Notes: a model not told the origin generated them from the letters alone. Positions 50,281 through 63,923 are shown, numbered from the stretch's first letter. The stretch: 64,000 nt of DNA from a virus (IMGVR_UViG_3300023048_000002:64001-128000), one strand, 5' to 3'. Made by a program: numbers and translations.

Positions 50281-50370
50281 TGGAGCCGCCCACAGGATTC
50301 GAACCTGCGATGTAGGTATTACCATTCTTGCTTACAAGGCAAGCCCTTTCGACCACTCAGGCAAGACGGC
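50281..50370 (-). tRNA. tRNA-Thr(TGT) with long variable arm
   Basis: CTTGC CTTGTAA GCAAG; V region AATGGTAATACCTACATC. Confidence 0.8.
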
Positions 50371-50379
50371 TCATTAAAT

Positions 50380-50462
50380 TGGTGCTGGACACAGGATTCG
50401 AACCTGCAACGTGGAATACCTGATTACAAAACAGGTGCCTTCAACCATTCAGCCAATCCAGC
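50380..50462 (-). tRNA. tRNA-Thr(TGT), expanded variable region
   Basis: CCTGT TTTGTAA TCAGG; 11-nt V region. Confidence 0.8.
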
Positions 50463-50575
50463 ATTCTTAAATACGAATGTATTTATAAACTTGTGATGAG
50501 ATTTTAATCTTATCATTTAATTTAGTATCGGTCAAGTGATCAATATCATCTTGACCATTCAAGAAGAAATCCTTA

Positions 50576-50950
50576 TTAACCCTTGGTGTCAAGATAGATT
50601 GCGCGTTTGACTTCAGGAGTTTCTTCGTGGGTTAGCTGGGTTAATTCTAATTTGATTGTTTTATCTGGATGTTCTGATGGAACCATAGTGACCAAGAGAG
50701 TATTAAACAATCCCGCTTCTTTACTTTCAAAATTTAGATCATACTTCTTACCATACTTTCTAAAGATAGGAAGCATAGCACGCATGAGATAGAGTGGAAG
50801 ATTCTTCTGTGGGAGAGCCTGTACATCTAGAACCTTCATTCCATCTGTTGGTGCAGCATTAGAAGAAACCAAGACAGCCTTAAACATAGGCTGTCTTGTA
50901 TCAATAGCTTCTTCTAGCTTTTCATTTAGGTTGAAAATTAAATCAAACAT
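50576..50950 (-). CDS. hypothetical protein
   Basis: 124 aa. Confidence 0.6.
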   Translation of the reverse strand: MFDLIFNLNEKLEEAIDTRQPMFKAVLVSSNAAPTDGMKVLDVQALPQKNLPLYLMRAMLPIFRKYGKKYDLNFESKEAGLFNTLLVTMVPSEHPDKTIKLELTQLTHEETPEVKRAIYLDTKG

Positions 50951-50972
50951 AGATTACTCAATAATCTATTAT

Positions 50973-51953
50973 TTATGACTTAATGCCCATCCAAGTGTCA
51001 TCCAGCGATTTCTTGGTATCCATCAAGGCAAATTCTGAAACGGTCTTGGCAATTTCAAATCCATTTCTCTTAAGTTCACTTGCCCATGCAATAACCCAAT
51101 AATCATGATCATTACGGTTATTATCGGTTCGAATTGTCCCCATGATCTTAACCATTCCTTCTACATCACTACGCAATGCATTCTTAGAAATATGCAAGCG
51201 TGTTCCTCCAAAATGATTATTTGAAATCTCTCGCAATTTTGATAAATCATTTAGTTCAACAAAGATGGTGAAATGGCTCTCATAATATCCATCAGGATTT
51301 CCATCAAGGATAGGATGCCAAGGTACTGTTTCAATCTTTGTACGAATGACATCAAATCCATCAACATATAGCGTATTAATTAGATTATCAGCAAACATTT
51401 TAGCATCATCGTATGTACCGATGATTACGGATGCCGTTGTTAGTTGCTGCGGAGCATCACCTAAATCGAGGACAATAGCTTTTAAATTATTTAATGTCTT
51501 ACAGTATTTTTCAAACACTGCAATATCAATTGGCTTTTTGTTCCAACGATCTTCGCTTAAAGTCAAGTGAATCTCAAATGGATACTTACCATCTGACTTA
51601 TCTTGATCATTTCTCTTAGACCAATGAATAGCCTTATCTGACAGCATAGAGGTAATATCACTATCTTCATACCCCAATGAATATGCAATTGATAATGCAA
51701 CAAGCATCACATCAGCAACTTCGTCCAAAATTTTATCTTTAGATGCTATCTTGTGTCTAGCACCCTGAGCATTCTCGTGTGTGAGAACAGCATCAGCAAG
51801 CTCTCCACCTTCAATGAATAGCTTTGAGGATTTCTGGCTAAGGGTCTTCGTATCCTTTAGGGATAGTTGCTTAACAAGCGCTAAAATATCGTCTCTCATT
51901 CTGTTGGTCCTGATGTGTCCATGTTTTTGTAATGCTTTCTCTGTGCTAGGCAA
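50973..51953 (-). CDS. MazG-like nucleotide pyrophosphohydrolase fused to an unknown domain
   Basis: KLFIEGGELA...DEVADV; true start may be MRDD. Confidence 0.7.
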   Translation of the reverse strand: MPSTEKALQKHGHIRTNRMRDDILALVKQLSLKDTKTLSQKSSKLFIEGGELADAVLTHENAQGARHKIASKDKILDEVADVMLVALSIAYSLGYEDSDITSMLSDKAIHWSKRNDQDKSDGKYPFEIHLTLSEDRWNKKPIDIAVFEKYCKTLNNLKAIVLDLGDAPQQLTTASVIIGTYDDAKMFADNLINTLYVDGFDVIRTKIETVPWHPILDGNPDGYYESHFTIFVELNDLSKLREISNNHFGGTRLHISKNALRSDVEGMVKIMGTIRTDNNRNDHDYWVIAWASELKRNGFEIAKTVSEFALMDTKKSLDDTWMGIKS

Positions 51954-52243
51954 GAATCATGGAACTCTTTCGTAATCTTGATTTCACCATAGGTATTACC
52001 GGGAACCATATTACAAAATGCTTCATTCATTGATTTAAGTTGATCCCTTACCTTACAACACTTCATATGTCCACTGGAACTAGTGCCATTACTGTTAACT
52101 GTAATAGTGTATGGACAGTCTTTTTCTGGTTGCTTTATGCATTTCTGTGTAATCGCTGATGGCTTACGATCAACAATGAATAGCCATACTATCAGAAGCA
52201 GAAAAATTAAAAATAATACAATTGATTCCATAATTATCTCCAA
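51896..52243 (-). CDS. small membrane protein
   Basis: N-terminal TM, Cys-rich. Confidence 0.55.
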   Translation of the reverse strand: MEIIMESIVLFLIFLLLIVWLFIVDRKPSAITQKCIKQPEKDCPYTITVNSNGTSSSGHMKCCKVRDQLKSMNEAFCNMVPGNTYGEIKITKEFHDSCLAQRKHYKNMDTSGPTE

Positions 52244-52275
52244 AGAAAAAGGCTGGGTTCACCAGCCTTTTTAAC

Positions 52276-53226
52276 TTAGTCGTTGTATGAGTCAGAAGAT
52301 TCTTCATAACTTGACTCTTCTTCATCTTCCACTTCTTCATATTTGTCCTGAATATGAAGAAGTCGATCTAGTGCCGTAGTATCTTCAAAATGAAGCGTAG
52401 CCCAATTCTTGTTATAGACAACAGTCGTACCAATGCCGATAACATTATGCGCTAGGAACAGTGGACGAAGACCACGAGTCTGAGGAACCATGCTTTCCAT
52501 CATGCTCATGATGTCCTTATTGAAGTAACGCGGATCATCAAGAACTTCCTGTGGAAAGCTATCAGTGTTGATAACATTAACAAAGAATTCTGAATGCTGG
52601 AAATCTGGACCAGTAGGCTTGAATTCCTTAGTCTTACGCTTCTTTGTAGCTTTAACTGCATAGTCGTTCATGTGTTCAATAGCTTCAGCCATTGTGACAC
52701 CTTCAATCTTAAACAGGCGACCATGCCACTCTAGTGAAGGCATCCAGAGAATACCGACTGCATCGTTAGCTGTTGGGGTTGATGTTAGCTTTGAATTCTT
52801 TTGTGTCAAACTATCTGCTGTAATGGTTACTGGACCACTACTTGATACATTGAGGCTACCATCATTACTGATGTCAACTGTTGTTCCACCATTTGAAATC
52901 TTAATTCCAAATTTTGCAGCAGGAGCTACCTTTAGCGGCTCTACGATCTTAACAAACTCTAACAGATAGTCGATTAGCTGGCTGACGGTCTTATTGTTGA
53001 ATGATTCTACCACATCAAGTTCAGGGATTTCAATTTCTAGCTCATCTTCAATAAGCATGATGAGTTCAATGATGTCAATAGAATCGGCTCCATAAAGCTC
53101 GCTTACATCTTCTATGGTATCAGAGAAATTTATATGCTCAATGACACCAAAGGTCTCATTGGCAACATTGGTGATAATAGCCAATAGATCAACTACTGCA
53201 TCAGGCTTTGATTTGTATGTCTTCAT
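52276..53226 (-). CDS. acyl-carrier-protein domain fusion protein
   Basis: YGADSIDIIELIMLIEDELEIEIP; start MKTY with promoter TTGACA-17-TACAAT at 53249-53277. Confidence 0.7.
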   Translation of the reverse strand: MKTYKSKPDAVVDLLAIITNVANETFGVIEHINFSDTIEDVSELYGADSIDIIELIMLIEDELEIEIPELDVVESFNNKTVSQLIDYLLEFVKIVEPLKVAPAAKFGIKISNGGTTVDISNDGSLNVSSSGPVTITADSLTQKNSKLTSTPTANDAVGILWMPSLEWHGRLFKIEGVTMAEAIEHMNDYAVKATKKRKTKEFKPTGPDFQHSEFFVNVINTDSFPQEVLDDPRYFNKDIMSMMESMVPQTRGLRPLFLAHNVIGIGTTVVYNKNWATLHFEDTTALDRLLHIQDKYEEVEDEEESSYEESSDSYND

Positions 53227-53266
53227 GGAAAATTCCGTTATTTGGGTTATTGTACTGTGTATAATA

Positions 53267-54550
53267 TTACTTGTCAAATTCGCACAAGTAACGAAGGTTT
53301 GCCTGATCAAGGCTATAAACAATCATTTCATTATTAGCAACGCCACTCTTACCACCAAGAGCTAGACAAGAGTCATATCCTGCTGGAATACGGCTGAGAG
53401 GTGCCGAAGGTGTATATGATCTTCCAAGGCTAACATCTACTAAGAACATGAAACAATTATCATCATAACCACCGCCGCCCCAATAACCATGTGCATAGTT
53501 GAGTGACTTAGTACTCTGATCACTAAAATATAGACCATCACCAAACATACGTCCGGTGATATGGTAGCCACCTGCTGAGGTTGGGATGATTAGTCCACCC
53601 TTAAGAATAGAGAGAACATTGAATGCACGGGTACCATGCCAAAGTTGCATTTCGTTCCCAATAACATCAAACTTCTTCTTATATGATGCTGTGCTGTTAT
53701 CATTCTGAACTTCATACACATTCTTCAAACGAAGGTGTGCACATGCGTGACGTGAGTTCATGTTTGAGGCATAGAACGTCTTTACCCTATCAATCACTGT
53801 CTGGTCTGAAACTAATTTCAAACTGTTATTGAATAGGCGTTCTGGTTCCTTCTTAGCATCATCAACACTTACAACAGGTGGAGTATAGTTCTGAATTGAG
53901 GTTTCAATCTGATCAAGAAGTGAGTTCTGATTCTGGAATGAGGAAATATCCGTAAAAAATGTTTCACCCCAACCGCGAGCGCGAGGAACCTTCTGTGGAA
54001 TGATAGAAAGATAATCATTTAGTGTTTGGCTATATGAATTACCAAAGTCCTGAGTATCAATGAAGTCCTTTAGGGAAATCAATACATCACGAGCCTTACT
54101 AACTGCTGGTAGCGTGATAGGACCAAGAACAGTCTTAACGATACCATCAACGATATCGATCTGATCACCTGTAGCCTTTAGAAGCTGATATTTATTGATA
54201 GCTGATAGTCGATCTAGAAGCTTAGCCATTTCTGGATTATTGTCAGCGATATCACGCTTTGCGATTATTGCAAGTGATTCAGTTGCAAGGGAAACCGTAC
54301 CGCTTGCGGCAGGAGTTCCATTGTTTGTCATAACATCAACTTCTCTGTACCCCTTTGATGCAGCAGTCTTTGACTTATAAACCTTGTTGAATGCAGCTTC
54401 GCCATAACCCTTCTGTTCGGTTACGCCGTTATCACCATTACGACCATAACGCGCAGTTACAGAATCGTCATCGTTCCAGATAATTTCATAGAACTTGTTA
54501 TTGTTATTACCGCTGTCAACTTTGACAAGCATTGCGTACTTTTTTGCCAT
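53267..54550 (-). CDS. WGR-regulatory-catalytic PARP-like ADP-ribosyltransferase
   Basis: NNNKFYEI...YGR (WGR), YLSIIP, WHGT, GRMFGDGLYF, KSLNY, NEMIVY (H-Y-E). Confidence 0.9.
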   Translation of the reverse strand: MAKKYAMLVKVDSGNNNNKFYEIIWNDDDSVTARYGRNGDNGVTEQKGYGEAAFNKVYKSKTAASKGYREVDVMTNNGTPAASGTVSLATESLAIIAKRDIADNNPEMAKLLDRLSAINKYQLLKATGDQIDIVDGIVKTVLGPITLPAVSKARDVLISLKDFIDTQDFGNSYSQTLNDYLSIIPQKVPRARGWGETFFTDISSFQNQNSLLDQIETSIQNYTPPVVSVDDAKKEPERLFNNSLKLVSDQTVIDRVKTFYASNMNSRHACAHLRLKNVYEVQNDNSTASYKKKFDVIGNEMQLWHGTRAFNVLSILKGGLIIPTSAGGYHITGRMFGDGLYFSDQSTKSLNYAHGYWGGGGYDDNCFMFLVDVSLGRSYTPSAPLSRIPAGYDSCLALGGKSGVANNEMIVYSLDQANLRYLCEFDK

Positions 54551-54622
54551 TAGAGGTATCCCTTAGCTCAGATAAAGAATGATACAGAAAAGCCCTTGTT
54601 GTTAACAAGGGCTTGAATGGAA

Positions 54623-55471
54623 TTAACGTGTAGCATTTATTTTAGTTTCATATTGTATCAAAGCATCTACTACTTTGAACATATCAGAATAATAGAATCC
54701 CGAAACACCGAATGTATTGATTTCAACAACCCTTAAACCATTGGGTGTATCTGCAATATCAATTACAAATGCATCGGCTGGTTGCCATCGATCAGCCATC
54801 GATTGTGCAAAATCCACAATCTTCTGATCAATGATTGAATCATACTTTACCGTGTCACCAAGCTTGTAGGTTGATCCTGTGACTACCTTACCATCCACTA
54901 CAAAGAAGCGATGTTCTGAGTAGATATCCTTTACAGATGAAACCGTGACTGGTGTATAAGCATTGAGTGATTTAGGATCAAAGCCATCTTCAGGTTTAAA
55001 ATGAGTTAGATGACGCTTCCAGTCTGCGTAATATTCCTTAATCATTGTCATACCGGTGAAGATCTTATCATCTTTAAATGGTCGAATGAAAACATCATAA
55101 TCAAGGTCGGGGAGTTCACCAGCTAATGATACGAATGAATCACCATTTAAAATATTGTCTAGTCCAAATCCCTTTGACCAATGATCAAAGTCAAAGTTTT
55201 GAGAATCAAAAGCACCCGGTGAGATGCCACGTTCCTTGATTAATCTGGAAAATTTATGAGAGCCGAAGATGTATGTTGGAACACTGGAACTTAAGCATAG
55301 TTCCTCAGCCGTTTCAATCTGTAATGATGTTACATGATTTGGAAAAATCACATCTACAAACTCAAACAGATTACACAAAGTGTAATCTGTTTGAAAGAAG
55401 TCTAATGCCTTCAATAATTGTTCGTAGTGTGGTTCCCTCTTGAGAATATTCTCTTGAATAAGGAATTTCAC
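54623..55471 (-). CDS. ATP-grasp protein (DUF4343/R2K-like)
   Basis: FIRP..DKIFTG, EHRFFVV, VIDIA, VEIN. Confidence 0.78.
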   Translation of the reverse strand: MKFLIQENILKREPHYEQLLKALDFFQTDYTLCNLFEFVDVIFPNHVTSLQIETAEELCLSSSVPTYIFGSHKFSRLIKERGISPGAFDSQNFDFDHWSKGFGLDNILNGDSFVSLAGELPDLDYDVFIRPFKDDKIFTGMTMIKEYYADWKRHLTHFKPEDGFDPKSLNAYTPVTVSSVKDIYSEHRFFVVDGKVVTGSTYKLGDTVKYDSIIDQKIVDFAQSMADRWQPADAFVIDIADTPNGLRVVEINTFGVSGFYYSDMFKVVDALIQYETKINATR

Positions 55472-56151
55472 TTTCGCACTCCAAATAGATTTAGTGACGG
55501 GATGATAACATGGTTAATGTGTTCAATCTCATTCTGCATCTTTAGAATCATATTTTCAACGTAACGAAGTTGCTGTTTCGTTGCCTCTAGATTCTGTAGT
55601 GCCTGAAGCATCAATAGTCTACGATTGTAGAGTGTGTCATACATCAGGTTCTCTTTCTTTGTAGCGGATTCTGATGCTGCTGCCAATGTGGCAACCCAAT
55701 CGACAATGTTAAGTGCTGCTACATTGTCAAGTAAATCAGATACCACACGATGAATATTCTCCAAACGTAAGGATAACGACTTTACCTGAATCACATAATA
55801 CTGTTTGTTTGGACGCTTAATGAATGAAGAAAAGAATGACTTTGCTTTAGCTGCATCAACGACTTCACCCAAAAGCTTAGATGCATCAAGGCCATTGTAA
55901 ACTCCAATAGCATCACTAGCTTGATTAACAAAATAGCTTTGTGCATGGAGGACTGACTTGCCCCAATTCAAAATCTTTATATTATCACCAGTAGCAAGAT
56001 CACGTACCATCTGTGTAAGCTTAAGGGAATCCTTCCCATAAGCTTCTGCATAGTTTTCCTTCATAAACTTTACGGCTGATTCTAGTGAAACTCCTAGATC
56101 GCCGTAAACGGTTGCTGGTGGTTTTGAGTATTCACTATCATCTGACATCAT
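55468..56151 (-). CDS. TelA-related helical protein
   Basis: Helical, coupled to the telA gene. Confidence 0.45.
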   Translation of the reverse strand: MMSDDSEYSKPPATVYGDLGVSLESAVKFMKENYAEAYGKDSLKLTQMVRDLATGDNIKILNWGKSVLHAQSYFVNQASDAIGVYNGLDASKLLGEVVDAAKAKSFFSSFIKRPNKQYYVIQVKSLSLRLENIHRVVSDLLDNVAALNIVDWVATLAAASESATKKENLMYDTLYNRRLLMLQALQNLEATKQQLRYVENMILKMQNEIEHINHVIIPSLNLFGVRK

Positions 56152-56154
56152 AAA

Positions 56155-57249
56155 TTACTTCTTTGAGTATGCTGCGATTGTTTCCTGCTCAAGACGGGCA
56201 AGTTCTACCATGGTGATCTTGCGGGTTTCACGGGCTTCCTGTTCGATTTCACGAACCTTCTGTAGTGAACCAACAGTATCTTCATGTAGCTGCTTAATGG
56301 TGTCGAGATTGACTGCCTGACGCTGATTCAAACGTGCCATGGCTTCAACATTCTTAGCATTAGCACTGCTTGCAGACTTAACTGTTTCATTGAATAGGTC
56401 GAATGTCTTGTTCTGTAGTGCAATAGCACCAGTCTGGCTCTGACTGATCAAGTCACCAGCAAAATACTGCTGATACATGGGGATGATCTTGGTTGTTACA
56501 TCATCAAACGTACCAACAAGACTTGATGCCGTGCGCTTCATCTGTGCAAGCTTTGGATCATATTCCATGGAAAGAATCTTGAATGACTCTAGGTCAACAA
56601 TCTTCTTGTCGAGTTTATCAGAAAGATTCTGTAGATCATTTCGCTTATGGGCTTCATCAAGTGAAGCTGCTTCTGTGGGAAGCTGTTCTAGCTCAGCATT
56701 GACCTGTTCAAGAGCATCCTTGGCGATTTCAATATCCTGAAATAGGCTCTTGCAATAGTTATAGTTTCCTTCGATAAGGATATCGACATTACGAGCCTGC
56801 CTTACCTGAAGGTCACGTTCCTTTCCAATCTGTTTAACAAGAACATCAACACGGTCCTTTGCGCTATCAAATCGTGCTACAGCACGGTCCTTGATGCGAA
56901 GAGCCTTGTTTACAATCTTCTGAATCTTTCCAGTTTTATACTTGTCTGCTGACAAATCCTTGGATACATCAATGAGTTCGTTTAGCTTTTCACCCATTGC
57001 TCCACCTTCAGAATTCTTCTGCTGGTCAAGAACCTTGGCTGCAAACGTGGCAAGATTCTTGCCAGATTCATTACCAATACTAGATACGAATTCTTCAGTG
57101 ATAGGACGACCGATCTGCTTGCCCGGTGTAACCTGTGAGGTTGTCGAGACAGAAATAGCAGTGTTATAGAGTGGTACGTATGGATCGGATTTCATCGAAG
57201 GTTCCGTTGTTTCGTTGTTGGAGGGTCTATCCCAAATCTGGTCAGTCAT
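56155..57249 (-). CDS. telA: toxic anion resistance protein TelA/KlaB-like
   Basis: IGNE...KVLD...LNEL...RFDSAKDRVD...L..NY.Y...IP. Confidence 0.78.
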   Translation of the reverse strand: MTDQIWDRPSNNETTEPSMKSDPYVPLYNTAISVSTTSQVTPGKQIGRPITEEFVSSIGNESGKNLATFAAKVLDQQKNSEGGAMGEKLNELIDVSKDLSADKYKTGKIQKIVNKALRIKDRAVARFDSAKDRVDVLVKQIGKERDLQVRQARNVDILIEGNYNYCKSLFQDIEIAKDALEQVNAELEQLPTEAASLDEAHKRNDLQNLSDKLDKKIVDLESFKILSMEYDPKLAQMKRTASSLVGTFDDVTTKIIPMYQQYFAGDLISQSQTGAIALQNKTFDLFNETVKSASSANAKNVEAMARLNQRQAVNLDTIKQLHEDTVGSLQKVREIEQEARETRKITMVELARLEQETIAAYSKK

Positions 57250-57375
57250 GATGTGTCATCCTTATTAGGTGGGAGAATTGTAGAGTTTAATTACATAACA
57301 ATCAAGAACCAAATTCAGAATATTCAATTATAATTCAGGAAAAGAAAAAGCCGTAGATTTCTCTACGGCTTTATA

Positions 57376-57450
57376 TGGTTCCCACAGTAGGAATCGGACC
57401 TACGACTATTCATTACCAATGAATTATGTTACCATTATCACTATGCGGGA
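57376..57450 (-). tRNA. tRNA-Thr(GGT)
   Basis: ATTCA TTGGTAA TGAAT. Confidence 0.8.
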
Positions 57451-57457
57451 TTAATTT

Positions 57458-57532
57458 TGGCTGGCCTAGATGGATTCGAACCACCATCAAATCTTTCAGA
57501 GAGACTTATCCTAACCGTTGGACGATAGGCCA
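57458..57532 (-). tRNA. tRNA-Gln(CTG)
   Basis: U1-A72, G73, CTCTGAA loop. Confidence 0.9.
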
Positions 57533-57540
57533 TTATAAAC

Positions 57541-58203
57541 TTATTTATCTGTTTCTTCTTTAACTGCAACTAAAGGATATTTATATGGTGAGACTATACC
57601 ATCAACAAAATGTTTCGTCAAGGCTTCATCAGATAAAATCCAATATTCATTGGCTTCTCTTTGTAGTAATTCTTGTACTGGCATTCCGGTGCGCTTAGAT
57701 GCATTAACATTTAAATCAAAGATTAACATCTTTAACATAGTCAATCTGTTCTCGGCATGCTCTAACTGATCTGAAGAGATAGTTGTTCTTGCCTGATGAA
57801 ACATAATGATGGCATGTGGAAGCATGTAACGTTTAAATCCATACTGGTGAATATATGCTGCCATGCTTGCAGCAGTACCAACCACGACAGTATAGACTGG
57901 CCTCTTTGATGCCTGCATAGCATCGATAATTCTCAAGCCAGACATAACATTACCACCCGGTGAGTCAATAAACAAGATAATAGGCTTGTCTGTACTTACA
58001 TCTTGAAGATCATGAATCTTCTTGATTACCTGATAAGCAGTAAAATCATTTACTTCACCATAAAGTGTTACAGTATTCTGGTCATTCAATTCATCCTTAG
58101 ATGATGGTGACGCTGAACAGCTAACTGTAGTAGTTAGTACAAACCCTAGAACAACGAACAAGGACAAACTTTTAAACCATTGCATACTGTTTTTACTCCC
58201 CAT
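57541..58203 (-). CDS. clpP: ClpP-like protease with N-terminal signal/lipobox
   Basis: IDSPGG, AASMA, IMFHQ; hydrophobic leader ending TVSC. Confidence 0.82.
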   Translation of the reverse strand: MGSKNSMQWFKSLSLFVVLGFVLTTTVSCSASPSSKDELNDQNTVTLYGEVNDFTAYQVIKKIHDLQDVSTDKPIILFIDSPGGNVMSGLRIIDAMQASKRPVYTVVVGTAASMAAYIHQYGFKRYMLPHAIIMFHQARTTISSDQLEHAENRLTMLKMLIFDLNVNASKRTGMPVQELLQREANEYWILSDEALTKHFVDGIVSPYKYPLVAVKEETDK

Positions 58204-58306
58204 GTTTAAAACTATTTATGGAAGAGCCTACACATTATTTTCATGTAAATCAAACCTTTAATTCACATACGTGAAAACAAAAAAAGACGCCTAAGCGTCT
58301 TTGAAA

Positions 58307-58380
58307 TGGCAGCGGATGCAGGATTCGAACCTGCGATGGAGCATTCAAAGTGCCCTGCCGTACCACTTGGCTAATCCGCT
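58307..58380 (-). tRNA. tRNA-Gln(TTG)
   Basis: GGGCA CTTTGAA TGCTC. Confidence 0.88.
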
Positions 58381-58390
58381 ATATTTTTAA

Positions 58391-58471
58391 TGCCTCGTGA
58401 TGGGATCGAACCATCGACCTTTTCCTTATCTATCCTAGTAAGGAACACTACTTCCTCTGAGTTAACGAGAC
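58391..58471 (-). ncRNA. tRNA-like RNA with expanded anticodon arm, no encoded CCA
   Basis: Acceptor and T arm intact; TTCCTTA-CTAGGATAGA-TAAGGAA. Confidence 0.65.
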
Positions 58472-58477
58472 ATATTT

Positions 58478-58551
58478 TGGTAGTTCCTAACAGAATTGAA
58501 CTGTTGTCATTGCCATGTAAAAGCAAGGTTTTTCCATTAAACTAAGGAACC
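58478..58551 (-). tRNA. tRNA-Val(TAC)
   Basis: TTGCT TTTACAT GGCAA. Confidence 0.85.
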
Positions 58552-58557
58552 ATAATC

Positions 58558-58632
58558 TGGTACATCGTGAGGGATTCGAACCCCCGACAATTTGCGAGTC
58601 ATGCAAACACTCTACCGCTGAGCTAACGATGC
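58558..58632 (-). tRNA. tRNA-Val(GAC)
   Basis: TTTGC ATGACTC GCAAA. Confidence 0.85.
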
Positions 58633-58640
58633 ATAATCTT

Positions 58641-58862
58641 CTATTTATTGTCAGTGGGGGAAATTCCCATAGACTTTATTAATCGTCTAGCCCATTTAAT
58701 TGGTGATGTTACACTATTTTGACGATTTAATTTTTCTTGAGATTCTTGAGATTCTTGAACCATCAAAGCAAGACCTAATAGTTCAGCACGCCTTGGATGA
58801 AGTTTCTCACCCTTAATGTTGTCTATTACTTCTTCTATAGTAAGAAGTGAGTTCGTTTTCAT
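58641..58862 (-). CDS. hypothetical protein
   Basis: 73 aa. Confidence 0.5.
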   Translation of the reverse strand: MKTNSLLTIEEVIDNIKGEKLHPRRAELLGLALMVQESQESQEKLNRQNSVTSPIKWARRLIKSMGISPTDNK

Positions 58863-59113
58863 AGTAATTGGTTCTTAGCTGTGTTGTAAGTTAGTTCTTG
58901 AACAACTAATCCACCATCTTCATCATCATGGGCTAGAACCTTAATACCAAATTCTTCAAACCCTGCTCTTACACCATTTGTGATTTGTTTTTCAATTCCA
59001 TCAAAATCATGGAAGTTACCAAATGGAGTATACTCTTTAACAGACTTGTGTACAAACTTTTCCTTGCCGCACCAAAGTTTCTTAATCTTATTTTTATCTT
59101 TAGTCTTTAGCAT
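58859..59113 (-). CDS. hypothetical protein
   Basis: 84 aa. Confidence 0.55.
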   Translation of the reverse strand: MLKTKDKNKIKKLWCGKEKFVHKSVKEYTPFGNFHDFDGIEKQITNGVRAGFEEFGIKVLAHDDEDGGLVVQELTYNTAKNQLL

Positions 59114-59279
59114 AATTTTCTTCCATGGTCTTGAGTTCTTCTTTCAAAGTTTCCCAATACCTTTTACTCTGACTGTACCAACGGCTAGTACCATTTTCTC
59201 TCAGAATTCTTTCATGGTTATCTATCTGATCTTTCTTTTTGGCAATCAATAATGCCAATTCTTCTTTGTCATTTATCAT
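59100..59279 (-). CDS. 59 aa hypothetical protein (not in ORF track)
   Basis: MINDKEELALL...EENYAKD; overlaps next start; TTGACA promoter upstream. Confidence 0.55.
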   Translation of the reverse strand: MINDKEELALLIAKKKDQIDNHERILRENGTSRWYSQSKRYWETLKEELKTMEENYAKD

Positions 59280-59319
59280 GCCAATAAATTAACATCTTAT
59301 TTTATATCTGTCAATAGGT

Positions 59320-60258
59320 TTATTTTGGTGCTGGCTCATCTTCATCGCGTGATCTAAAGTAATCTTTCAGTTCATCTCGGAGACTGATATATCTATCTGA
59401 ACCATCATCAACAAGATAATTTAATCCCTGCCAATCTTTTCTAAGGTCAGTATAAGGATTGTACTGGTTATCTACCAATATCTTCCATCTTGTTCCGTAT
59501 GAGCGGTTGCTCTTCTTTCCATGATAGTTATGAATAAGAAGACCATGAACATATCCAATATTTCTACGAAGCTTCTTGGCTTTCTCACCCCATTCAACGA
59601 GAGCATTAATATATTCAGGAGAGCAAGGATAACTAACAGAACGACGAATGTCATCCATAAATCCACATGCCATCTGAAAATCACCTGATCCAACAATTGA
59701 GAAGTCGATCAATCCATCAATCACTTCCATAGCATGGCGAGTTGCTGCCCATGCATAACCACAATGACCTGAATGCTTGTTGTAGTCGTTAAGGATAACA
59801 CCGGTCTTATGATACTGGTAAACCATTCCCTTCATAGGAATAGAACCATTAGATGTAATGCGGTTAAAGTTATCATCAATATCAATTGTCTCGCTGAACA
59901 ACTGCACGACTTGGTAATGATGAAGTTGATGAATTGTTTCCTTCACCCAATCTGGACGAGCGAATAATACATCAGCATCAATCCATGCAACATATTCCCA
60001 ATCTTCAGGAAGATGCTGTAAGCCAATGTTAATGAGATTTTCTTTGTTCCAAAGTTCATTCTTTGTTCTTACCTGAACATGATGTGGATTATCTTTATGT
60101 GTAACCTCATAAGGCCTGTCAGCAAATGCTGCTTCTACGGTAATGAGTGTTGCACCAGCAGCATGAATTCTTTCAGCGAATTCACGATAAAGTTTGTATC
60201 TGCTACGGTATCTAAGGGGATTTGAAACAACAGTTATTACGTATAGTGTATTTTTCAT
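59320..60258 (-). CDS. GT-A fold glycosyltransferase-like protein
   Basis: WNKENLIN, WIDADV (DxD), GYAWA, GSGD, HNYHG. Confidence 0.75.
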   Translation of the reverse strand: MKNTLYVITVVSNPLRYRSRYKLYREFAERIHAAGATLITVEAAFADRPYEVTHKDNPHHVQVRTKNELWNKENLINIGLQHLPEDWEYVAWIDADVLFARPDWVKETIHQLHHYQVVQLFSETIDIDDNFNRITSNGSIPMKGMVYQYHKTGVILNDYNKHSGHCGYAWAATRHAMEVIDGLIDFSIVGSGDFQMACGFMDDIRRSVSYPCSPEYINALVEWGEKAKKLRRNIGYVHGLLIHNYHGKKSNRSYGTRWKILVDNQYNPYTDLRKDWQGLNYLVDDGSDRYISLRDELKDYFRSRDEDEPAPK

Positions 60259-60451
60259 TTTATAATCAGAAGGCTATTAATATTTTACGAAATTCCTTTA
60301 TGGCACCCAAAAAATACGTAAGAAATAGCGTATTTTCGTGAGATTCTACTCCACCAAACAGAAAAGCCAGACAAAAGTCTGGCCGATTATGTACTTAATT
60401 ATTTATGTATAGTGTCAATTTTCTGACTGTAGATTTTTGAGAAATTTCGTA

Positions 60452-60733
60452 TTATTGCCTGTTAAACATGATGACTTCTTTGCCGCCATATTCCTTTCTG
60501 ATCCTAGTTATTCCAAGATCATCAAAGCTACATATCCAGTCTGAATCTTTGGATGGTGTACTACCAATCTGATGCTGATGAAACCTATACTCACCATTGG
60601 TCAATTTAGATTCAACATAATCCCTATCCTTTGGTTCCTTATAGAGGCCACCACTTCTAGCCATGTCAAGAAGATAGTCAAAGAATTTTTGACGTAGTTC
60701 ATAATTTTCAGTGATTATATTCTTGAGTCTCAT
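60452..60733 (-). CDS. hypothetical protein, possible head-internal protein
   Basis: MRLKNIITE leader. Confidence 0.55.
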   Translation of the reverse strand: MRLKNIITENYELRQKFFDYLLDMARSGGLYKEPKDRDYVESKLTNGEYRFHQHQIGSTPSKDSDWICSFDDLGITRIRKEYGGKEVIMFNRQ

Positions 60734-60749
60734 ATGAATCCATTTTAGA

Positions 60750-61256
60750 TTATTTATTTAATAGATTGCTAATCTCATCAAACCTATCATCAACACCAAG
60801 CCTCTTTAGCCAATTATTAAAATATTCATTAAGCTCATCTGATCGAGGATGTGTTCCATCATGATAGATTAAGAAATCTTTATAATTTTGAATCTTATCT
60901 GCAATCAACATGTTATTGACTTCATCCATAGGACTCAAGGCAATCTCTTCAATACTTTCTATCTTTCTATGACTAAGATATTGATTTGCAATGTTTCGAT
61001 ATTCCATGGTTAACATAGCGACATATGGGTCAACCTTATTAATGAATCCATAGTTCTTTGAGAAGTCTTCGTCAGCCTGAAATAATGGATGGAGGCAGAA
61101 TGCTCTCTTTGCATCTGATCCCGCATGAATCATCTCTAAAACAGAAATGCCTTCATCAATATGATTCATTAAAGCTACACCACTACGTTTAGCAGTACGA
61201 TCACCATAGAACTGTTTAATCCATTGGTACTCATTTGTATACTTAGTATATTCCAT
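60750..61256 (-). CDS. HD-fold (SpoT/MESH1-like) protein, degenerate
   Basis: KRSGVALMNHI...CLHPLFQ...LIADKIQN. Confidence 0.55.
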   Translation of the reverse strand: MEYTKYTNEYQWIKQFYGDRTAKRSGVALMNHIDEGISVLEMIHAGSDAKRAFCLHPLFQADEDFSKNYGFINKVDPYVAMLTMEYRNIANQYLSHRKIESIEEIALSPMDEVNNMLIADKIQNYKDFLIYHDGTHPRSDELNEYFNNWLKRLGVDDRFDEISNLLNK

Positions 61257-61734
61257 TTAAAAATTCCGTAGGGTCAATAAGTGATTCTGGCATGGGATCG
61301 TTATGATACCACCATACTGTCTTAGTTGTGCCAGCTTTATGTATTTCAAAATGTAACATACACGTAGGTGTAACACCTTTATCCTTTTTCAGGACTTGCT
61401 TAATGTTTCCTATATGATCACCAACCTTAACTGGATGACCAACAGTTACGCCATCAAGTATGTCTATTTCACCGTAAACGAGGACACCAGACGATCCCTC
61501 TACAAGGAGTGCCCAAGTATCGTTCCACCATGGGGAATCCGCGTGTGAGCCTGTGAAGGCTTCTATGGCTACAACAATTCCATCTTCGATAGCCATAACT
61601 AGGTCACCATCATTACAATAAATGTCGATACCAGTGTGTGTATCAAATCTGCGAATGGAGCCGAATGCACCGGGATCACCTACAGTAGGGATTGGGTGTG
61701 TGTTAGTTACTGGTTTCATGATTATCGTATTCAA
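61243..61734 (-). CDS. M23 peptidase-like protein
   Basis: HTGID, AIEDGIV, VKVGDHIG, MLHFE. Confidence 0.8.
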   Translation of the reverse strand: MNTIIMKPVTNTHPIPTVGDPGAFGSIRRFDTHTGIDIYCNDGDLVMAIEDGIVVAIEAFTGSHADSPWWNDTWALLVEGSSGVLVYGEIDILDGVTVGHPVKVGDHIGNIKQVLKKDKGVTPTCMLHFEIHKAGTTKTVWWYHNDPMPESLIDPTEFLNGIY

Positions 61735-62041
61735 AGATTCTTACTTCGTAAGATTGGTTACTAACATCACGGCGAAGAAGTGCAAGACTGATCGAAAAAT
61801 TACCAAGATTGAATTCATGGATTTCAGTGAAGTGGGTGTCCATCATACCTGCTGGTTCACCACCGTGCTTTCTGGCGGCTGCGATTCTCTGGTAAGTGCT
61901 TCTACCAATCGATCCTTTCATGATCACAACATCGATTCCCATTTCATCGAAAATCTTATTGATGATTTTCATATGGACATCTGGAATCTCCATTGGGATT
62001 CGTGGATCACTGTAACCTTGATTCCAATCTGGCTTGTTCAT
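61703..62041 (-). CDS. hypothetical protein
   Basis: 112 aa. Confidence 0.55.
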   Translation of the reverse strand: MNKPDWNQGYSDPRIPMEIPDVHMKIINKIFDEMGIDVVIMKGSIGRSTYQRIAAARKHGGEPAGMMDTHFTEIHEFNLGNFSISLALLRRDVSNQSYEVRIFEYDNHETSN

Positions 62042-62097
62042 CTTTAAAATTCTCTTAAATGAAAAAAACTCTTAGGATATCCTAAGAGTTTTAGTGT

Positions 62098-62172
62098 TGG
62101 GGACCACGGAGAGGATCGAACTCTCTTATTCTGATTCACAGTCAGATACATTACCATTATGATACGTGGAAC
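62098..62172 (-). tRNA. tRNA-His(GTG)
   Basis: G-1:C73, TCTGA CTGTGAA TCAGA; mismatches at the top of the acceptor stem. Confidence 0.8.
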
Positions 62173-62180
62173 ATATAACT

Positions 62181-62272
62181 TGGTGGTTCCTGTAGGATTC
62201 GGACCTACATCGTTCGGTTATCTGCCGATCATGTCTTATAAGGACACCGCACTACCATTGTGCTAAGGAACC
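62181..62272 (-). tRNA. tRNA-Ile(TAT) with extra GAT anticodon-like arm
   Basis: GTGTC CTTATAA GACAT then TCGG CAGATAA CCGA. Confidence 0.8.
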
Positions 62273-62277
62273 GTAAT

Positions 62278-62354
62278 TGGGAGTCGGTAGTAGGTAACGA
62301 ACCTACATCTGCAACTACTACCGCTGCATGTTCTACAATTGAACTACACCTATC
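62278..62354 (-). ncRNA. degenerate tRNA-like RNA
   Basis: D and T arms and CCA present; mismatched acceptor; loop GGTAGTA. Confidence 0.55.
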
Positions 62355-62361
62355 ATAAAAA

Positions 62362-62438
62362 TGGCTCTTCGGGTGAGATTCGAACTCACGATCCTCTGAT
62401 TAACAGTCAGATGCATTAGGCCGCTATGCTACCGAAGA
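62362..62438 (-). tRNA. tRNA-Asn(GTT)
   Basis: TCTGA CTGTTAA TCAGA, G73. Confidence 0.92.
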
Positions 62439-62444
62439 ATAAAC

Positions 62445-62520
62445 TGGCGATCCGGGTGGGGCACGATCCCACGACCCCAAAATTAACAATTTTGTGCTCT
62501 ACCAACTGAGCTACCGAATC
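62445..62520 (-). tRNA. tRNA-Asn(GTT), second copy
   Basis: CAAAA TTGTTAA TTTTG; atypical T loop ATCGTGC. Confidence 0.8.
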
Positions 62521-62527
62521 ATAAAAC

Positions 62528-62619
62528 TGGTGGATGTGACAGGATTTTCGCCTGTACTACTGCGGCAGGTTGCGTCATCGGCTTCCTGACGTAGTGTCTT
62601 AAACTTAACTTACACACCC
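62528..62619 (-). ncRNA. tRNA-like RNA with Ala acceptor identity and no anticodon loop
   Basis: GGGTGTG/CACATCC-A-CCA (G3-U70); ~35 nt irregular helix. Confidence 0.65.
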
Positions 62620-62635
62620 ATAACTATTTGTGGAA

Positions 62636-62768
62636 TGGTTGGAATGGTTGGAATTGAACCAACATCACTGGCCTATAAGATCGAATCGTTGTCATTTGAC
62701 CGCCTAAGCGTCTACCTAAGTAGAAACGATCTTTTGCCTAGCGCTCTACCTATTGAGCTACTATTCCA
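62636..62768 (-). ncRNA. tRNA scaffold carrying a four-way junction in place of the anticodon loop
   Basis: D arm GCTC AATAGGTA GAGC, T arm GTTGG TTCAATT CCAAC, ACCA end. Confidence 0.75.
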
Positions 62769-62780
62769 TAAAACTAAATC

Positions 62781-62855
62781 TGGCAGAGCTAACGGGAATC
62801 GGACCCGTTTCTTATCCGTGACAGGGATAAATAATAACCAATATACCATAGCTCT
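62781..62855 (-). tRNA. tRNA-Asp(GTC)
   Basis: TATCC CTGTCAC GGATA, G73. Confidence 0.85.
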
Positions 62856-62864
62856 GTAAAACTT

Positions 62865-63080
62865 TTAATCTTTCTTAATCCAAGCTAACTTAAGATGTGA
62901 AACTGGCTTATAGCCTGCATCAATTAACTCTTGTTCAGTTGGCCCATTCTTTGCAGCTTCAATATAGTCTTGCAAAGGTTTAGGGTCCATAGACTGAACA
63001 CTTAGTAATTCTTCAGCAAACTTTCGTGGAATATCTATACGAAGCTGTTTGATCAATTCTTTACGTTCTTCTTTTGTCAT
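62865..63080 (-). CDS. hypothetical protein
   Basis: 71 aa between tRNAs. Confidence 0.55.
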   Translation of the reverse strand: MTKEERKELIKQLRIDIPRKFAEELLSVQSMDPKPLQDYIEAAKNGPTEQELIDAGYKPVSHLKLAWIKKD

Positions 63081-63094
63081 ATTTTTCTCTAAAT

Positions 63095-63179
63095 TGGTGG
63101 GACGCGCAGGAGTCGAACCTGCCTAGAACTTTCGTTCGCTGATTAAGAGTCAGATGCACAACCGCTATGCCAGCGTCCC
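63095..63179 (-). tRNA. tRNA-Lys(CTT) with long variable arm
   Basis: CTCTTAA loop; V arm GAAC GAAA GTTC. Confidence 0.82.
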
Positions 63180-63873: not shown

Positions 63874-63923
63874 TTTTTATCATGATATCGAGCTATAAGC
63901 TGGTTGTCAATGATAATTTGAAT

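Follow-up and report, generated by a model that had tools for sequence, protein, structure and literature searches.

The window, by which we mean the whole 64,000-nucleotide stretch of giant-phage DNA analyzed here (IMGVR_UViG_3300023048_000002:64001-128000), encodes 26 tRNAs on its minus strand, as determined by ARAGORN. Three additional tRNA-like genes, matched by the Rfam tRNA model below its threshold of 29 bits at 62282-62353 (26.8 bits), 62531-62619 (25.6 bits), and 62646-62761 (28.3 bits), raise the total to 29 tRNA-type genes. Eight of these are atypical, each lying 6-12 nt from an ordinary tRNA: four long tRNAs outside the Leu, Ser, and Tyr isotypes (Thr(UGU) twice, Ile(UAU), and Lys(CUU)), all above the Rfam threshold, and four tRNA look-alikes, termed genes A-D. 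The genes and surrounding signals are as follows.

50224..50266, minus strand: long hairpin directly 3' of both long Thr tRNAs.
50281..50370, minus strand: tRNA-Thr(UGU) of 90 nt, termed Thr-90 (ARAGORN; Rfam tRNA, 52.1 bits).
50380..50462, minus strand: tRNA-Thr(UGU) of 83 nt, termed Thr-83 (ARAGORN; Rfam, 51.9 bits).
58283..58302, minus strand: terminator-like hairpin with a UUAG loop, after Val, Val, gene A, and Gln.
58391..58472, minus strand: tRNA-like gene A (Rfam tRNA, 30.8 bits).
62065..62092, minus strand: terminator-like hairpin with a T run, 3' of tRNA-His, closing the unit headed by the site at 63882..63910.
62181..62272, minus strand: tRNA-Ile(UAU) of 92 nt, termed Ile-92 (ARAGORN; Rfam, 59.4 bits).
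62279..62353, minus strand: tRNA-like gene B (Rfam tRNA, 26.8 bits, under threshold).
62528..62619, minus strand: tRNA-like gene C (Rfam tRNA, 25.6 bits).
62636..62768, minus strand: tRNA-like gene D (Rfam tRNA, 28.3 bits).
63095..63179, minus strand: tRNA-Lys(CUU) of 85 nt, termed Lys-85 (ARAGORN; Rfam, 48.9 bits).
63882..63910, minus strand: promoter-like site, TTGACA, 17 nt, TATCAT (11 of 12 matches in a consensus scan; consensus match only).

The units containing the eight atypical genes are edged by promoter-like and terminator-like sites. Downstream of the site at 63882..63910, the gene order is Tyr, Ile, Asp, Lys-85, Asp, D, C, Asn, Asn, B, Ile-92, His, and genes A-D share operons and spacing with ordinary tRNAs. 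All eight genes would be co-transcribed with ordinary tRNAs and presumably excised by host tRNA-processing enzymes. What the analysis shows are structures, conservation, covariation, and genomic context; charging, decoding, and stability of the RNAs, as well as any counter-defence role, are inferred.

Both Thr genes carry a class-II-like D arm with a 3-bp stem and an enlarged loop (11 nt in Thr-90), and both encode CCA. The variable region of Thr-90 spans 18 nt and holds a short hairpin, followed by discriminator U, while Thr-83 has an unpaired variable loop of 11 nt and discriminator A. In Lys-85, the variable arm forms the hairpin GAAC-GAAA-GUUC; its discriminator is A, CCA is encoded, and at minimum energy the tRNA folds into a cloverleaf of five arms (z = -2.6). 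Phage XacN1 has a 91-nt tRNA-Thr(UGU) with 81% identity to Thr-90, and the stems of the acceptor, anticodon, and variable arms show compensatory changes between the two. Thr-83 shares 87-89% identity with the 87-nt tRNA-Thr of T5-like phages and with two 83-nt genes of the relative G001. The T5-like homologues have a 3-bp hairpin in the variable region, which has collapsed to an unpaired loop here and in G001. This family ranges over about 100 T5-like records plus G001; in its alignment 98.3% of cells are paired, double changes occur at five pairs, and 0/500 shuffles reach the score. XacN1 Lys(CUU) is 89 nt long with the arm AGC-GAAA-GCU, and Lys(CUU) of Xoo-sp13 and RAS14 are 76-nt forms. For the two Thr genes and Lys-85 together, homologues whose variable region is likewise enlarged occur in XacN1, in one uncultured relative, and in some 100 T5-like phages. 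Across nine phages, we count 23 long tRNAs outside Leu, Ser, and Tyr, whose arm stems vary in sequence but keep their pairing (Cys AGC/GCU vs GGA/UCC; Arg AUC/GAU vs UCA/UGA).

The long Thr and Lys genes are the only UGU and CUU tRNAs of the phage, and they match its preferred codons: ACA is the commonest Thr codon (35%), and AAG makes up 62% of Lys codons. Moreover, they retain the anticodon, G1-C72 and C2-G71 (Thr), and A73 (Lys) as identity marks, according to published synthetase rules (PMC9976931). Their homologues, their compensatory changes, and their position as sole genes for the commonest codons indicate that the two Thr(UGU) tRNAs and Lys(CUU) are probably working tRNAs. Their extra arm might allow nuclease evasion; our best guess, tentatively held and less likely than not, is that host enzymes which cut or disable tRNAs bind the altered body less well. 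No published description of Thr or Lys tRNAs with such long variable regions was found.

Ile-92 represents a different design. Its anticodon arm displays the loop CUUAUAA, and a second arm at 62214-62228 combines a 4-bp stem with the loop CAGAUAA, i.e., the loop of tRNA-Ile(GAU) with A at position 33. Decoding needs U33 in the anticodon loop. Unconstrained folding yields a five-arm cloverleaf (z = -2.7). The family has members in at least 120 viral contigs; their second-arm stem covaries and GAU is conserved, and the specific pattern matches in 27 contigs. In a scan that left the second loop unspecified, 68 of 81 unique viral genes display Y-A-G-A-U-N-A on 40 distinct stems, while hairpins of this type arise in 1.2% of shuffles. 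The second-arm strands pair at 4.28 of 5 positions with their own partners vs 2.51 for mismatched strands, and RNAalifold detects compensatory changes at 17 of the 19 pairs. This conservation clearly points to selection on the sequence of the second loop, and the arm would seem to mimic an anticodon rather than to shield the tRNA. We found no published description of this two-loop family.

Since tRNAIle(UAU) is charged poorly by E. coli IleRS (PMC3575796), and charging can be helped by a variable arm engineered as a pseudo-anticodon (PMC7590224), the second arm may plausibly give host IleRS, poor with UAU, a recognizable feature. IleRS has a single anticodon-binding site, and the GAU sits on a side arm, which speaks against such an aid. 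In the engineered tRNAs of Mukai 2020 (PMC7590224), an anticodon-type hairpin placed as variable arm recruits the anticodon-binding domain of a synthetase, while the other arm decodes. That system is synthetic, uses an allo-tRNA chassis, and depends on a HisRS to which a binding domain was added, whereas the natural Ile family would rely on unmodified monomeric IleRS. The TilS-independent tRNA-Ile(UAU) of Mycoplasma mobile (PMC3575796) likewise has an unmodified-type UAU and reads AUA without lysidine; there, however, IleRS is altered (Arg865) and the tRNA is class I, while in the phage family a GAU arm has been added to the tRNA.

Bacterial class II tRNAs (Leu, Ser, Tyr) place their variable-arm hairpin at the same site, between the anticodon and T arms, and the arms of the long tRNAs are capped by GAAA or UAAU-type loops, which the Ser tRNAs of this phage also have. 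Unlike class II tRNAs, the long tRNAs bear Thr, Lys, or Ile anticodons and shorter arms (0-4 bp; 3-4 bp in Thr-90 and Lys-85 vs 6 bp in the phage's own Ser tRNAs), and they lack the acceptor and discriminator marks of Ser. In addition, Lys-85 and Ile-92 have class I D arms.

Genes A-D are unable to read codons. Gene A keeps acceptor stem and T arm but encodes no CCA; a roughly 10-bp rod with a 3-nt loop takes the place of its anticodon arm, the Val(UAC) reading by ARAGORN is forced and its stem weak, and the fold of the gene is not significant (z = -1.2). Gene B has intact D and T arms, five of seven acceptor pairs with two non-standard pairs flagged by Rfam, an ambiguous CCA, an anticodon arm of 5 bp with a 9-nt loop, and a fold at z = -1.4; it is probably a degenerating tRNA. 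Gene C combines a 7-bp acceptor (G3-U70), A73, and CCA with a non-canonical T loop (CGAAAAU) and a D loop lacking GG, and its anticodon arm is replaced by a helix, long and irregular, with a loop of 15 nt (z = -1.35). Genes A-C fold no more stably than shuffled sequence (19/200 shuffles equal). In contrast, none of 200 shuffles is as stable as gene D (z = -3.1). Its body is of the tRNA-Ile(UAU) type: acceptor, D, and T arms are all canonical, and both A73 and CCA are present. An insert of 56 nt at the 5' edge of the anticodon loop CUUAUAG folds into four helices, two with UUAG caps. ARAGORN with introns allowed reads it as Ile(UAU) plus a 56-nt insert. No homologues of genes A-D were detected in five relatives or two collections, and an IMG/VR search returned no copy of gene C or gene D. 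Judged by these searches, genes A-D are lineage-specific. Insert-bearing tRNAs appear repeatedly among relatives; one such insert, that of Asn(GUU) in G001 and G002, bears compensatory changes.

The closest counterparts are the tRNA-like stable RNAs of phage T5 (GenBank AY543070), RNA1 (144 nt), RNA2 (125 nt), and RNA3 (73 nt), whose functions are annotated as unknown. Like genes A-D, they lie between ordinary tRNAs of the array and keep acceptor and T arms. RNA1 reads as a tRNA-Leu(UAA) body with a folded insert of about 40 nt (Rfam 24 bits), and RNA3 has a plain hairpin in the place of the anticodon arm; genes A, C, and D share these designs. In sequence, the T5 RNAs and the look-alikes of the window are dissimilar, and the body of gene D is Ile(UAU), not Leu. 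The likeness names a kind, not a mechanism, and stability is annotated for the T5 RNAs only.

Taken together, the eight atypical genes are three separate, recurrent kinds of phage RNA, and we consider this reading of them fairly probable. An earlier note on this DNA had proposed one RNA-based system. Its inventory is borne out: ARAGORN and Rfam give the same 29 genes with eight altered members interleaved with normal tRNAs, and the four look-alikes have abnormal anticodon arms. Of four added variable arms, those of Thr-90, Ile-92, and Lys-85 are hairpins, and that of Thr-83 is not. As to stems and CCA, described as mostly kept, CCA is encoded in C, D, both Thr genes, and Lys, absent from A, and ambiguous in B, whose acceptor has five of seven pairs. 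The argument against random decay holds for the long tRNAs, three of which have homologues of the same architecture with compensatory changes and one of which belongs to a large covarying family; they also serve the Thr and Lys codons that the phage uses most. It is not supported for the look-alikes, which lack detectable homologues and three of which fold like shuffled sequence. Standard annotation, expected to drop the altered genes, often calls the long tRNAs (tRNA-Thr in slur09, tRNA-Lys and tRNA-Thr in XacN1, tRNA-Ile in PhiM1), although, in isolates, roughly one in two copies of the Ile family lacks annotation. The single system itself is without support, with the genes falling into unrelated kinds and the Ile arm resembling an anticodon instead of armour. 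Nothing was found that ties the eight genes to the supposed stalling sensor at 45.7 kb, whose ORF has no Pfam match.

Alternatively, the altered genes could be neutral by-products, with arms left over from remodelled Ser, Leu, or Tyr bodies or from recombination and duplication in the array, and look-alikes that are young pseudogenes or tRNAs with hairpin insertions. We regard this as unlikely, although the resemblance of the long Thr D arms and of the GAAA- and UAAU-capped arms to Ser tRNAs would fit: the D arm of Thr-83 is 85% identical to that of the phage's Ser(UGA), a single anticodon change separates many long tRNAs from a class II tRNA (UGA to UGU, GUA to GUU, GCU to GCA), and XacN1 Lys and Cys share V-arm and T-arm modules. 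The collapsed arm of Thr-83, the unremarkable stability and missing homologues of genes A-C, and 13 nt common to the gene D insert and a nearby terminator hairpin point the same way. Yet arms with compensatory changes persist between phages that share just 67% identity in their capsid proteins, and also between siphoviruses and jumbo myoviruses. Comparison of D arms gives no clear preference for class II ancestry, Lys-85 and Ile-92 have class I D arms, and the sequence of the second Ile loop is plainly selected. Finally, decay disrupts helices, whereas genes A and D hold new perfect helices of 7-10 bp.

A single counter-defence layer, in which arms armour tRNAs against host tRNA-cutting enzymes and look-alikes act as enzyme-soaking decoys, appears rather unlikely. 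It has a precedent in T5, whose tRNA-Lys(UUU), Thr(UGU), and Asn(GUU) neutralize PARIS AriB and whose tRNA-Tyr neutralizes retron Eco7 (PMC12409363, PMC11464382, PMC11555353). As in T5, the phage isoacceptors differ from host tRNAs, and long arms recur on the AriB target isotypes Thr, Lys, and Asn. The AriB model contacts the D loop and anticodon stem, both altered in the long tRNAs, and UAAGCA at positions 36-41 of Thr-90 matches the resistant Thr of T5. Sets of long tRNAs vary among related phages, as an arms race predicts, and tRNA-Leu(UAG) of the same genome lacks its long arm, indicating body swaps in both directions. However, the T5 tRNAs shown to be effective are class I and escape by substitutions in the anticodon stem near the cut site; T5's own tRNA-Thr(UGU) is a 75-nt class I tRNA and not the 87-nt form, making the anti-PARIS link to the window indirect. 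Thr-83 and Lys-85 retain UAAUCA, the sequence cut by AriB in E. coli tRNAs. Arms also occur on Cys, Gly, Met, Arg, and a suppressor, leaving no clear target pattern, the Ile arm seems to mimic rather than shield, and the putative decoys are lineage-specific and show no evidence of selection.

It is quite improbable that gene D and other inserts are small introns, removed by a nuclease-plus-ligase route that would restore a working tRNA-Ile(UAU) in gene D. With the inserts removed, the loops are indeed canonical, 7 nt long, and carry U33 and a purine at position 37 (gene D CUUAUAG; G001 and G002 Asn CUGUUAA; G001 Lys CUUUUAA; also Leu(CAA) of the same genome), and XacN1-type phages encode a polynucleotide kinase-phosphatase along with several RNA ligases (PMC7824862, PMC5852040). 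But the inserts are far below group I intron length and match no ribozyme family, the available half genome yielded no RtcB/TROVE gene and only a weak ligase-family match, T5 RNA1 of equal design is annotated as a 144-nt stable RNA, i.e., unspliced, and the phage already has an intact Ile(UAU).

Nematode nev-tRNAs and bacterial allo-tRNAs are also long-armed with anticodons beyond Leu, Ser, and Tyr, but they keep Leu or Ser identity and mistranslate, whereas identity marks in the window fit the amino acid of the anticodon and the codons served are the phage's commonest. Recoding, i.e., charging by SerRS, LeuRS, or TyrRS for deliberate mistranslation of Thr, Lys, and Ile codons, is extremely unlikely: SerRS identity is mainly the long arm, E. 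coli LeuRS needs A73 and core structure but not the anticodon (PMC9976931), A73 is present in Thr-83, Lys-85, and Ile-92, and nev-tRNAs are a precedent (PMC3333845), yet mischarging of sole cognate tRNAs for ACA and AAG would hit the whole proteome, the Thr genes have C2-G71 and A or U at 73 where bacterial tRNA-Ser has G2-C71 and G73, the arms fall short of the 6 bp of the phage's Ser tRNAs, and the intact anticodon is read by ThrRS and LysRS.

We favour three different recurrent RNA kinds within phage tRNA arrays. The two Thr(UGU) tRNAs and Lys(CUU) would be working elongator tRNAs with an enlarged variable region (two short hairpins, one 11-nt loop), reading the phage's commonest Thr and Lys codons. 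Ile-92 would read AUA, its second arm presenting GAU, the ordinary isoleucine anticodon, with A in place of U33 and plausibly offering host IleRS, weak on UAU, something it recognizes. Among the look-alikes, gene D would be a tRNA-Ile(UAU) body with a stable four-helix insert, A and C would carry rods for an anticodon arm, and B would be a decaying tRNA, a set that parallels the annotated tRNA-like stable RNAs of T5.

The window covers bases 64001-128000 of an IMG/VR record that measures 171 kb and is about 49% complete (CheckV); the G+C content of the DNA is 39%. In its major capsid protein the phage shares 67% identity with the Xanthomonas jumbo phage XacN1 and 84-87% with four uncultured contigs, two of which (G001 and G002) represent complete genomes (340 and 350 kb); relatives were also sought via the ClpP-like protein, but only the capsid protein search succeeded. 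The window holds 29 tRNA-type genes, 26 called by ARAGORN and three recovered, at the positions given in the earlier note, as sub-threshold Rfam tRNA matches. Eight of these had been singled out in the earlier note as atypical, and ARAGORN together with the Rfam tRNA model confirms that all eight are real. Four are tRNAs of 83-92 nt (48.9-59.4 bits) outside Leu, Ser and Tyr, and the four others lack a normal anticodon arm. Each is separated from an ordinary tRNA by 6-12 nt; automated annotation catches some of these genes and misses or misnames others. The neighbours of the minus-strand tRNA genes are small ORFs and accessory genes.

Atypical tRNA-type genes and associated features of the window
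50281-50370, minus strand: Thr-90, tRNA-Thr(UGU)
50380-50462, minus strand: Thr-83, tRNA-Thr(UGU)
62181-62272, minus strand: Ile-92, tRNA-Ile(UAU)
63095-63179, minus strand: Lys-85, tRNA-Lys(CUU)
58391-58472, minus strand: gene A, tRNA look-alike
62279-62353, minus strand: gene B, tRNA look-alike
62528-62619, minus strand: gene C, tRNA look-alike
62636-62768, minus strand: gene D, tRNA look-alike
63910-63882, minus strand: promoter-like site heading the unit with genes B, C, D, Ile-92 and Lys-85
62092-62065, minus strand: terminator-like hairpin closing the same unit
58302-58283, minus strand: terminator-like hairpin, with gene A upstream
50266-50224, minus strand: hairpin, with Thr-90 and Thr-83 upstream
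49546-50223, minus strand: HNH endonuclease-like ORF (225 aa), directly downstream of Thr-90 and Thr-83, resembling homing endonucleases of many phages
53267-54550, 46897-48198, 56155-57249 and 57541-58203, minus strand: positions listed for a WGR/PARP-type ADP-ribosyltransferase, glutathionylspermidine synthase, TelA-like protein, ClpP-like protease and two R2K ATP-grasp proteins, interleaved with the tRNA array

The T5 tRNA region likewise contains several HNH genes. A further gene of the array, tRNA-Asp(GUC) at 63185-63259 (minus strand), reaches only 37 bits with the Rfam tRNA model, and its D arm is unusual; it is conserved nonetheless, being 94% identical to a G002 gene.

Textbooks reserve the long extra arm in bacteria for tRNAs of Leu, Ser and Tyr. 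In this phage, as in many others, it is found on tRNAs for Thr, Lys, Ile and Arg. On the full cloverleaf model RF00005 (gathering threshold 29 bits), Thr-90, Thr-83, Ile-92 and Lys-85 score 52.1, 51.9, 59.4 and 48.9 bits, gene A lies marginally above the threshold (30.8 bits), and genes B, C and D fall below it (26.8, 25.6 and 28.3 bits); these last three are tRNA-like, not tRNAs. An anticodon arm fit for decoding, taken as a 5-bp stem and 7-nt loop with U33 and a purine at position 37, is present in Thr-90, Thr-83 (one U-U at the loop-closing pair), Ile-92 and Lys-85, absent from genes A, B and C, and obtained in gene D only without its 56-nt insert. Judged as class II by a variable region of at least 10 nt forming a stem-loop, Thr-90 (18 nt), Ile-92 (22 nt; 4 bp and a 7-nt loop) and Lys-85 (15 nt; 4 bp and GAAA) qualify. 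The added variable arms ascribed to four genes are present in these three, while Thr-83 has an 11-nt unpaired variable loop. By isotype (Leu, Ser, Tyr or Sec in bacteria) none of the four belongs to class II, the anticodons being UGU, UGU, UAU and CUU. The set apparently comprises two kinds of working, non-textbook tRNA plus anticodon-less tRNA look-alikes; its description in the earlier note as one counter-defence or regulatory layer of armoured tRNAs and decoys is not borne out. Nor was a connection found between these genes and the element at 45.7 kb to which they had been tentatively linked, where a 99-aa ORF has no Pfam match.

The first kind is a two-armed tRNA-Ile(UAU), defined by the anticodon loop CUUAUAN, a following 3-6-bp hairpin with the 7-nt loop Y-A-G-A-U-N-A, and then the T arm. 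Ile-92 has this layout (CUUAUAA, then UCGG-CAGAUAA-CCGA), as does an unannotated 102-nt gene of the comparison phage Xoo-sp13 on another stem (AUCUC/GAGAU), and a pattern built from these two genes matched 27 viral contigs. A second scan, which specified no more than the UAU loop, the T loop and a gap of 24-45 nt between them and so left the second loop open, returned at least 119 validated tRNA-like matches (81 unique). Among the matches listed, a second hairpin with the Y-A-G-A-U-N-A loop occurs in 68 of the 81 unique genes on 40 distinct stems, A occupies the second loop position in 62 of these 68, and the second arm pairs at 4.28 of 5 positions between its own strands versus 2.51 between mismatched strands. 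Shuffled spacers yield such a hairpin 1.2% of the time, and RNAalifold detects compensatory changes at 17 of 19 pairs of the family. These comparisons clearly point to selection on the second arm. The design is annotated as tRNA-Ile in the isolates Pectobacterium phage PhiM1 and Vibrio phage WD615, and is present but unannotated in coliphages ESCO41 and ETEP102, Klebsiella phage KP13-26, Vibrio phages River4 and Pylo, and Lactobacillus phage Lpa804; some prokaryote contigs carry it too, including a 3.57-Mb Pyrinomonadaceae contig.

tRNA-Ile(UAU) is charged poorly by E. coli IleRS (PMC3575796), and charging can be aided by an engineered pseudo-anticodon in the variable arm (PMC7590224). We tentatively consider it possible, though less likely than not, that the second arm is a natural pseudo-anticodon, presenting GAU, which the host IleRS recognises, while the UAU arm reads AUA on the ribosome. 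A33 would stop the second arm from decoding, so that identity and decoding would reside on two separate arms of one tRNA. Our literature search found no paper describing a natural example of a pseudo-anticodon. A 90-nt tRNA-Ile in the genome G003 (L106:64-153, minus strand) has the reversed layout: its GAU anticodon arm is normal, and the 5-bp arm after it has UAU within a 6-nt loop, AUAUAA.

The second kind comprises the long tRNAs for Thr and Lys. About 100 T5-like phages have an annotated 87-nt tRNA-Thr(UGU) to which Thr-83 is 87% identical; with two 83-nt genes of G001 (UGU, CGU) it shares 83-89% identity. In an eight-sequence alignment of this family the cloverleaf is 98.3% paired, five pairs are changed on both sides, and none of 500 shuffles reaches the covariation score; on these grounds we regard the family as kept as tRNA. 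Thr-90 shares 81% identity with a 91-nt Thr(UGU) gene of XacN1, and the acceptor, anticodon and variable-arm stems of the two differ by compensatory changes. The minimum-energy folds of Thr-83 and Thr-90 are not cloverleaves (z about -0.8), which is uninformative, as usual for tRNAs. The Lys-85 arm reads GAAC-GAAA-GUUC and that of XacN1 Lys(CUU) AGC-GAAA-GCU; the syntenic Lys gene in Xoo-sp13 and in the comparison phage RAS14 is an ordinary one of 76 nt.

Across nine phages, 23 long tRNAs lie outside Leu, Ser and Tyr (Thr, Lys, Asn, Cys, Gly, Met, Arg, Ile and a CUA suppressor), and the set varies from genome to genome. Orthologous arms can be unlike in sequence and still paired, as in Cys (AGC/GCU versus GGA/UCC) and Arg(ACG) (AUC/GAU versus UCA/UGA). 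The enlarged variable region of tRNA-Arg(ACG) takes the forms AUC-UUAG-GAU, UCA-GAAA-UGA and a 10-nt unpaired loop in three related phages.

Copies of tRNA-Arg(ACG)
G000:C1:4582-4666, minus strand: copy in the same genome, outside the window
L091:828-907: copy in a related phage
L099:929-1016: copy in a related phage

The same genome also encodes, outside the window, two tRNA-Leu(UAG) on the minus strand, a normal 86-nt class II form (G000:C1:4492-4577) and a 78-nt form (G000:C1:4673-4750). The latter has A73 and a D arm of Leu type but no long arm, its variable loop being only 5 nt; short Leu(UAG) genes recur in the T5-like phage slur09 (77 nt) and in G001 (78 nt). Body swaps go in both directions, Arg(ACG) being long and one Leu(UAG) armless in the same genome. 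CUA (amber suppressor) tRNAs are found in XacN1 (L006:7048-7206), G002 (L102) and G001 (L096); the G001 gene, at 90 nt, is Ser-like because it has a long arm and G73.

As a job for the extra arm, evasion of tRNA-cutting nucleases strikes us as somewhat doubtful. Phage tRNAs can defeat tRNA-cutting defences, and PARIS AriB, which in a model also touches the D loop, cleaves between positions 40 and 41 of Lys(UUU), Thr(UGU) and Asn(GUU) (PMC12409363). These findings lend the armour idea appeal, but their connection to the long tRNAs is indirect. At the AriB site Thr-83, Lys-85 and Asn-77 keep UAAUCA; Thr-90 has UAAGCA, its G39 matching the resistant Thr of T5. However, the Thr(UGU) of T5 itself is a 75-nt class I tRNA with G39, the 87-nt form being a different allele of other T5-like phages, and long arms also occur on isotypes for which no nuclease is known. 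The published anti-defence phage tRNAs are class I T5 tRNAs, unlike the long-armed ones of the window, and we have withdrawn a direct tie between the long Thr genes and the T5 anti-PARIS tRNA-Thr. At the same place, T5 and slur09 hold two unrelated tRNA-Thr(UGU) alleles, a 75-nt class I form (L109:2668-2742) and an 87-nt long-armed form (L001:3010-3096), respectively; the long-armed allele is present in about 100 T5-like records other than T5. A neutral origin of the long arms is, in our estimate, unlikely; a comparison of D-arm similarity for class II ancestry showed no clear favouring.

The long genes are the only UGU and CUU tRNAs of the phage, whose commonest Thr codon is ACA (35%) and commonest Lys codon AAG (62%). 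ThrRS and LysRS read the anticodon plus acceptor pairs or A73, while bacterial tRNA-Ser keeps G2-C71 and rests its identity on the long arm and G73 (PMC9976931). In Thr-90 and Thr-83 the first acceptor pairs are G1-C72 and C2-G71 and position 73 is A or U; the arms of the Thr genes measure 0-4 bp, whereas the Ser tRNAs of the phage itself have arms of 6 bp. From codon use, the sole UGU and CUU genes, these identity marks and the short arms, we read the long Thr and Lys tRNAs as cognately charged; recoding through their mischarging would be highly improbable.

The look-alikes A to D differ in build. In gene D the acceptor, D and T arms are all canonical and both A73 and CCA are present; ARAGORN with introns allowed reports it as tRNA-Ile(UAU) with the 56-nt insert just 5' of the loop CUUAUAG. 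This insert folds into three hairpins, of which two are UUAG-capped, closed off by a 7-bp helix, and the whole RNA folds with z = -3.1. Gene A carries a rod of about 10 bp in place of the anticodon arm and lacks CCA. Gene C, with non-canonical D and T loops and a long irregular helix for an anticodon arm, retains G3-U70, A73 and CCA, the marks read by AlaRS. Gene B combines a weak acceptor with a loop of 9 nt. The folds of genes A, B and C are no more stable than those of shuffled sequence. BLAST against the genomes of five relatives and every locus retrieved for comparison found no homologues of the four genes, exact patterns of genes C and D had no match in IMG/VR, metagenome scans around Asn-76 and for Ile-92 likewise gave nothing, and Rfam matched no known ribozyme or other family in the inserts. 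The UUAG tetraloop recurs on short G+C-rich stems, twice in the gene D insert (62685-62730), in the terminator at 58283-58302 and in the Arg(ACG) arm at G000:C1:4582-4666. A mobile hairpin element as the source of the gene D insert is not supported, the only match being the 13 nt that it has in common with this terminator, which follows tRNA-Gln. A Y RNA/Ro partnership was likewise rejected: the YrlA match reaches 21.7 bits (Rfam cut-off 69) and spans two genes, and no TROVE match occurs in the 171-kb record, about half the genome. A decoy role of the look-alikes is no more than a speculative possibility.

The closest known counterparts of the look-alikes are T5 RNA1-3, annotated as tRNA-like stable RNAs, of which RNA1 can be read as a tRNA-Leu(UAA) interrupted by about 40 inserted nt, and RNA3 bears a simple hairpin as its anticodon arm. 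The predicted RNAs of genes A, C and D resemble RNA1 and RNA3 in lying inside a tRNA array and in joining tRNA-like acceptor and T arms to a non-decoding middle. The design of RNA1 is repeated in a class II tRNA-Leu of the same genome outside the window (G000:C1:2609-2738, minus strand), where removal of a 43-nt hairpin from the anticodon loop would leave a CAA loop. In tRNA-Asn(GUU) of G001 (L089:1036-1158) and G002 (L097:3985-4110), a homologous insert of about 51 nt splits the loop CUGU^UAA and forms a three-way junction with two compensated helices (GAUC/GAUC versus GGAA/UUCC and GACG/CGUC versus GAUG/CAUC), and G001 has a Lys(UUU) with a 30-nt insert. Insert-bearing tRNAs thus recur in the clade. 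Ten further matches to the Asn three-way-junction pattern lie in coding DNA and are due to chance. Splicing of the inserts is very unlikely in our view; RtcB was not found in the 171-kb record, and a ligase-family match was weak and below the cut-off. Since T5 RNA1 is annotated at full length, we favour the analogous reading of the insert-bearing genes as unspliced tRNA-shaped RNAs.

The anticodon-less look-alikes bring jumbo phages into the 40-year-old puzzle posed by the stable RNAs of T5 and T4, and the two tRNA-Thr(UGU) alleles at one place in T5-like phages bear on how the published PARIS rescue experiments are read. Any function that the extra arms may have, for instance synthetase recruitment or escape from tRNA-cutting immunity, would offer new rules of tRNA recognition and parts for orthogonal tRNA engineering. 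Should the second arm of tRNA-Ile(UAU) indeed be a pseudo-anticodon, it would enable phages to decode AUA in any host with no need for lysidine.
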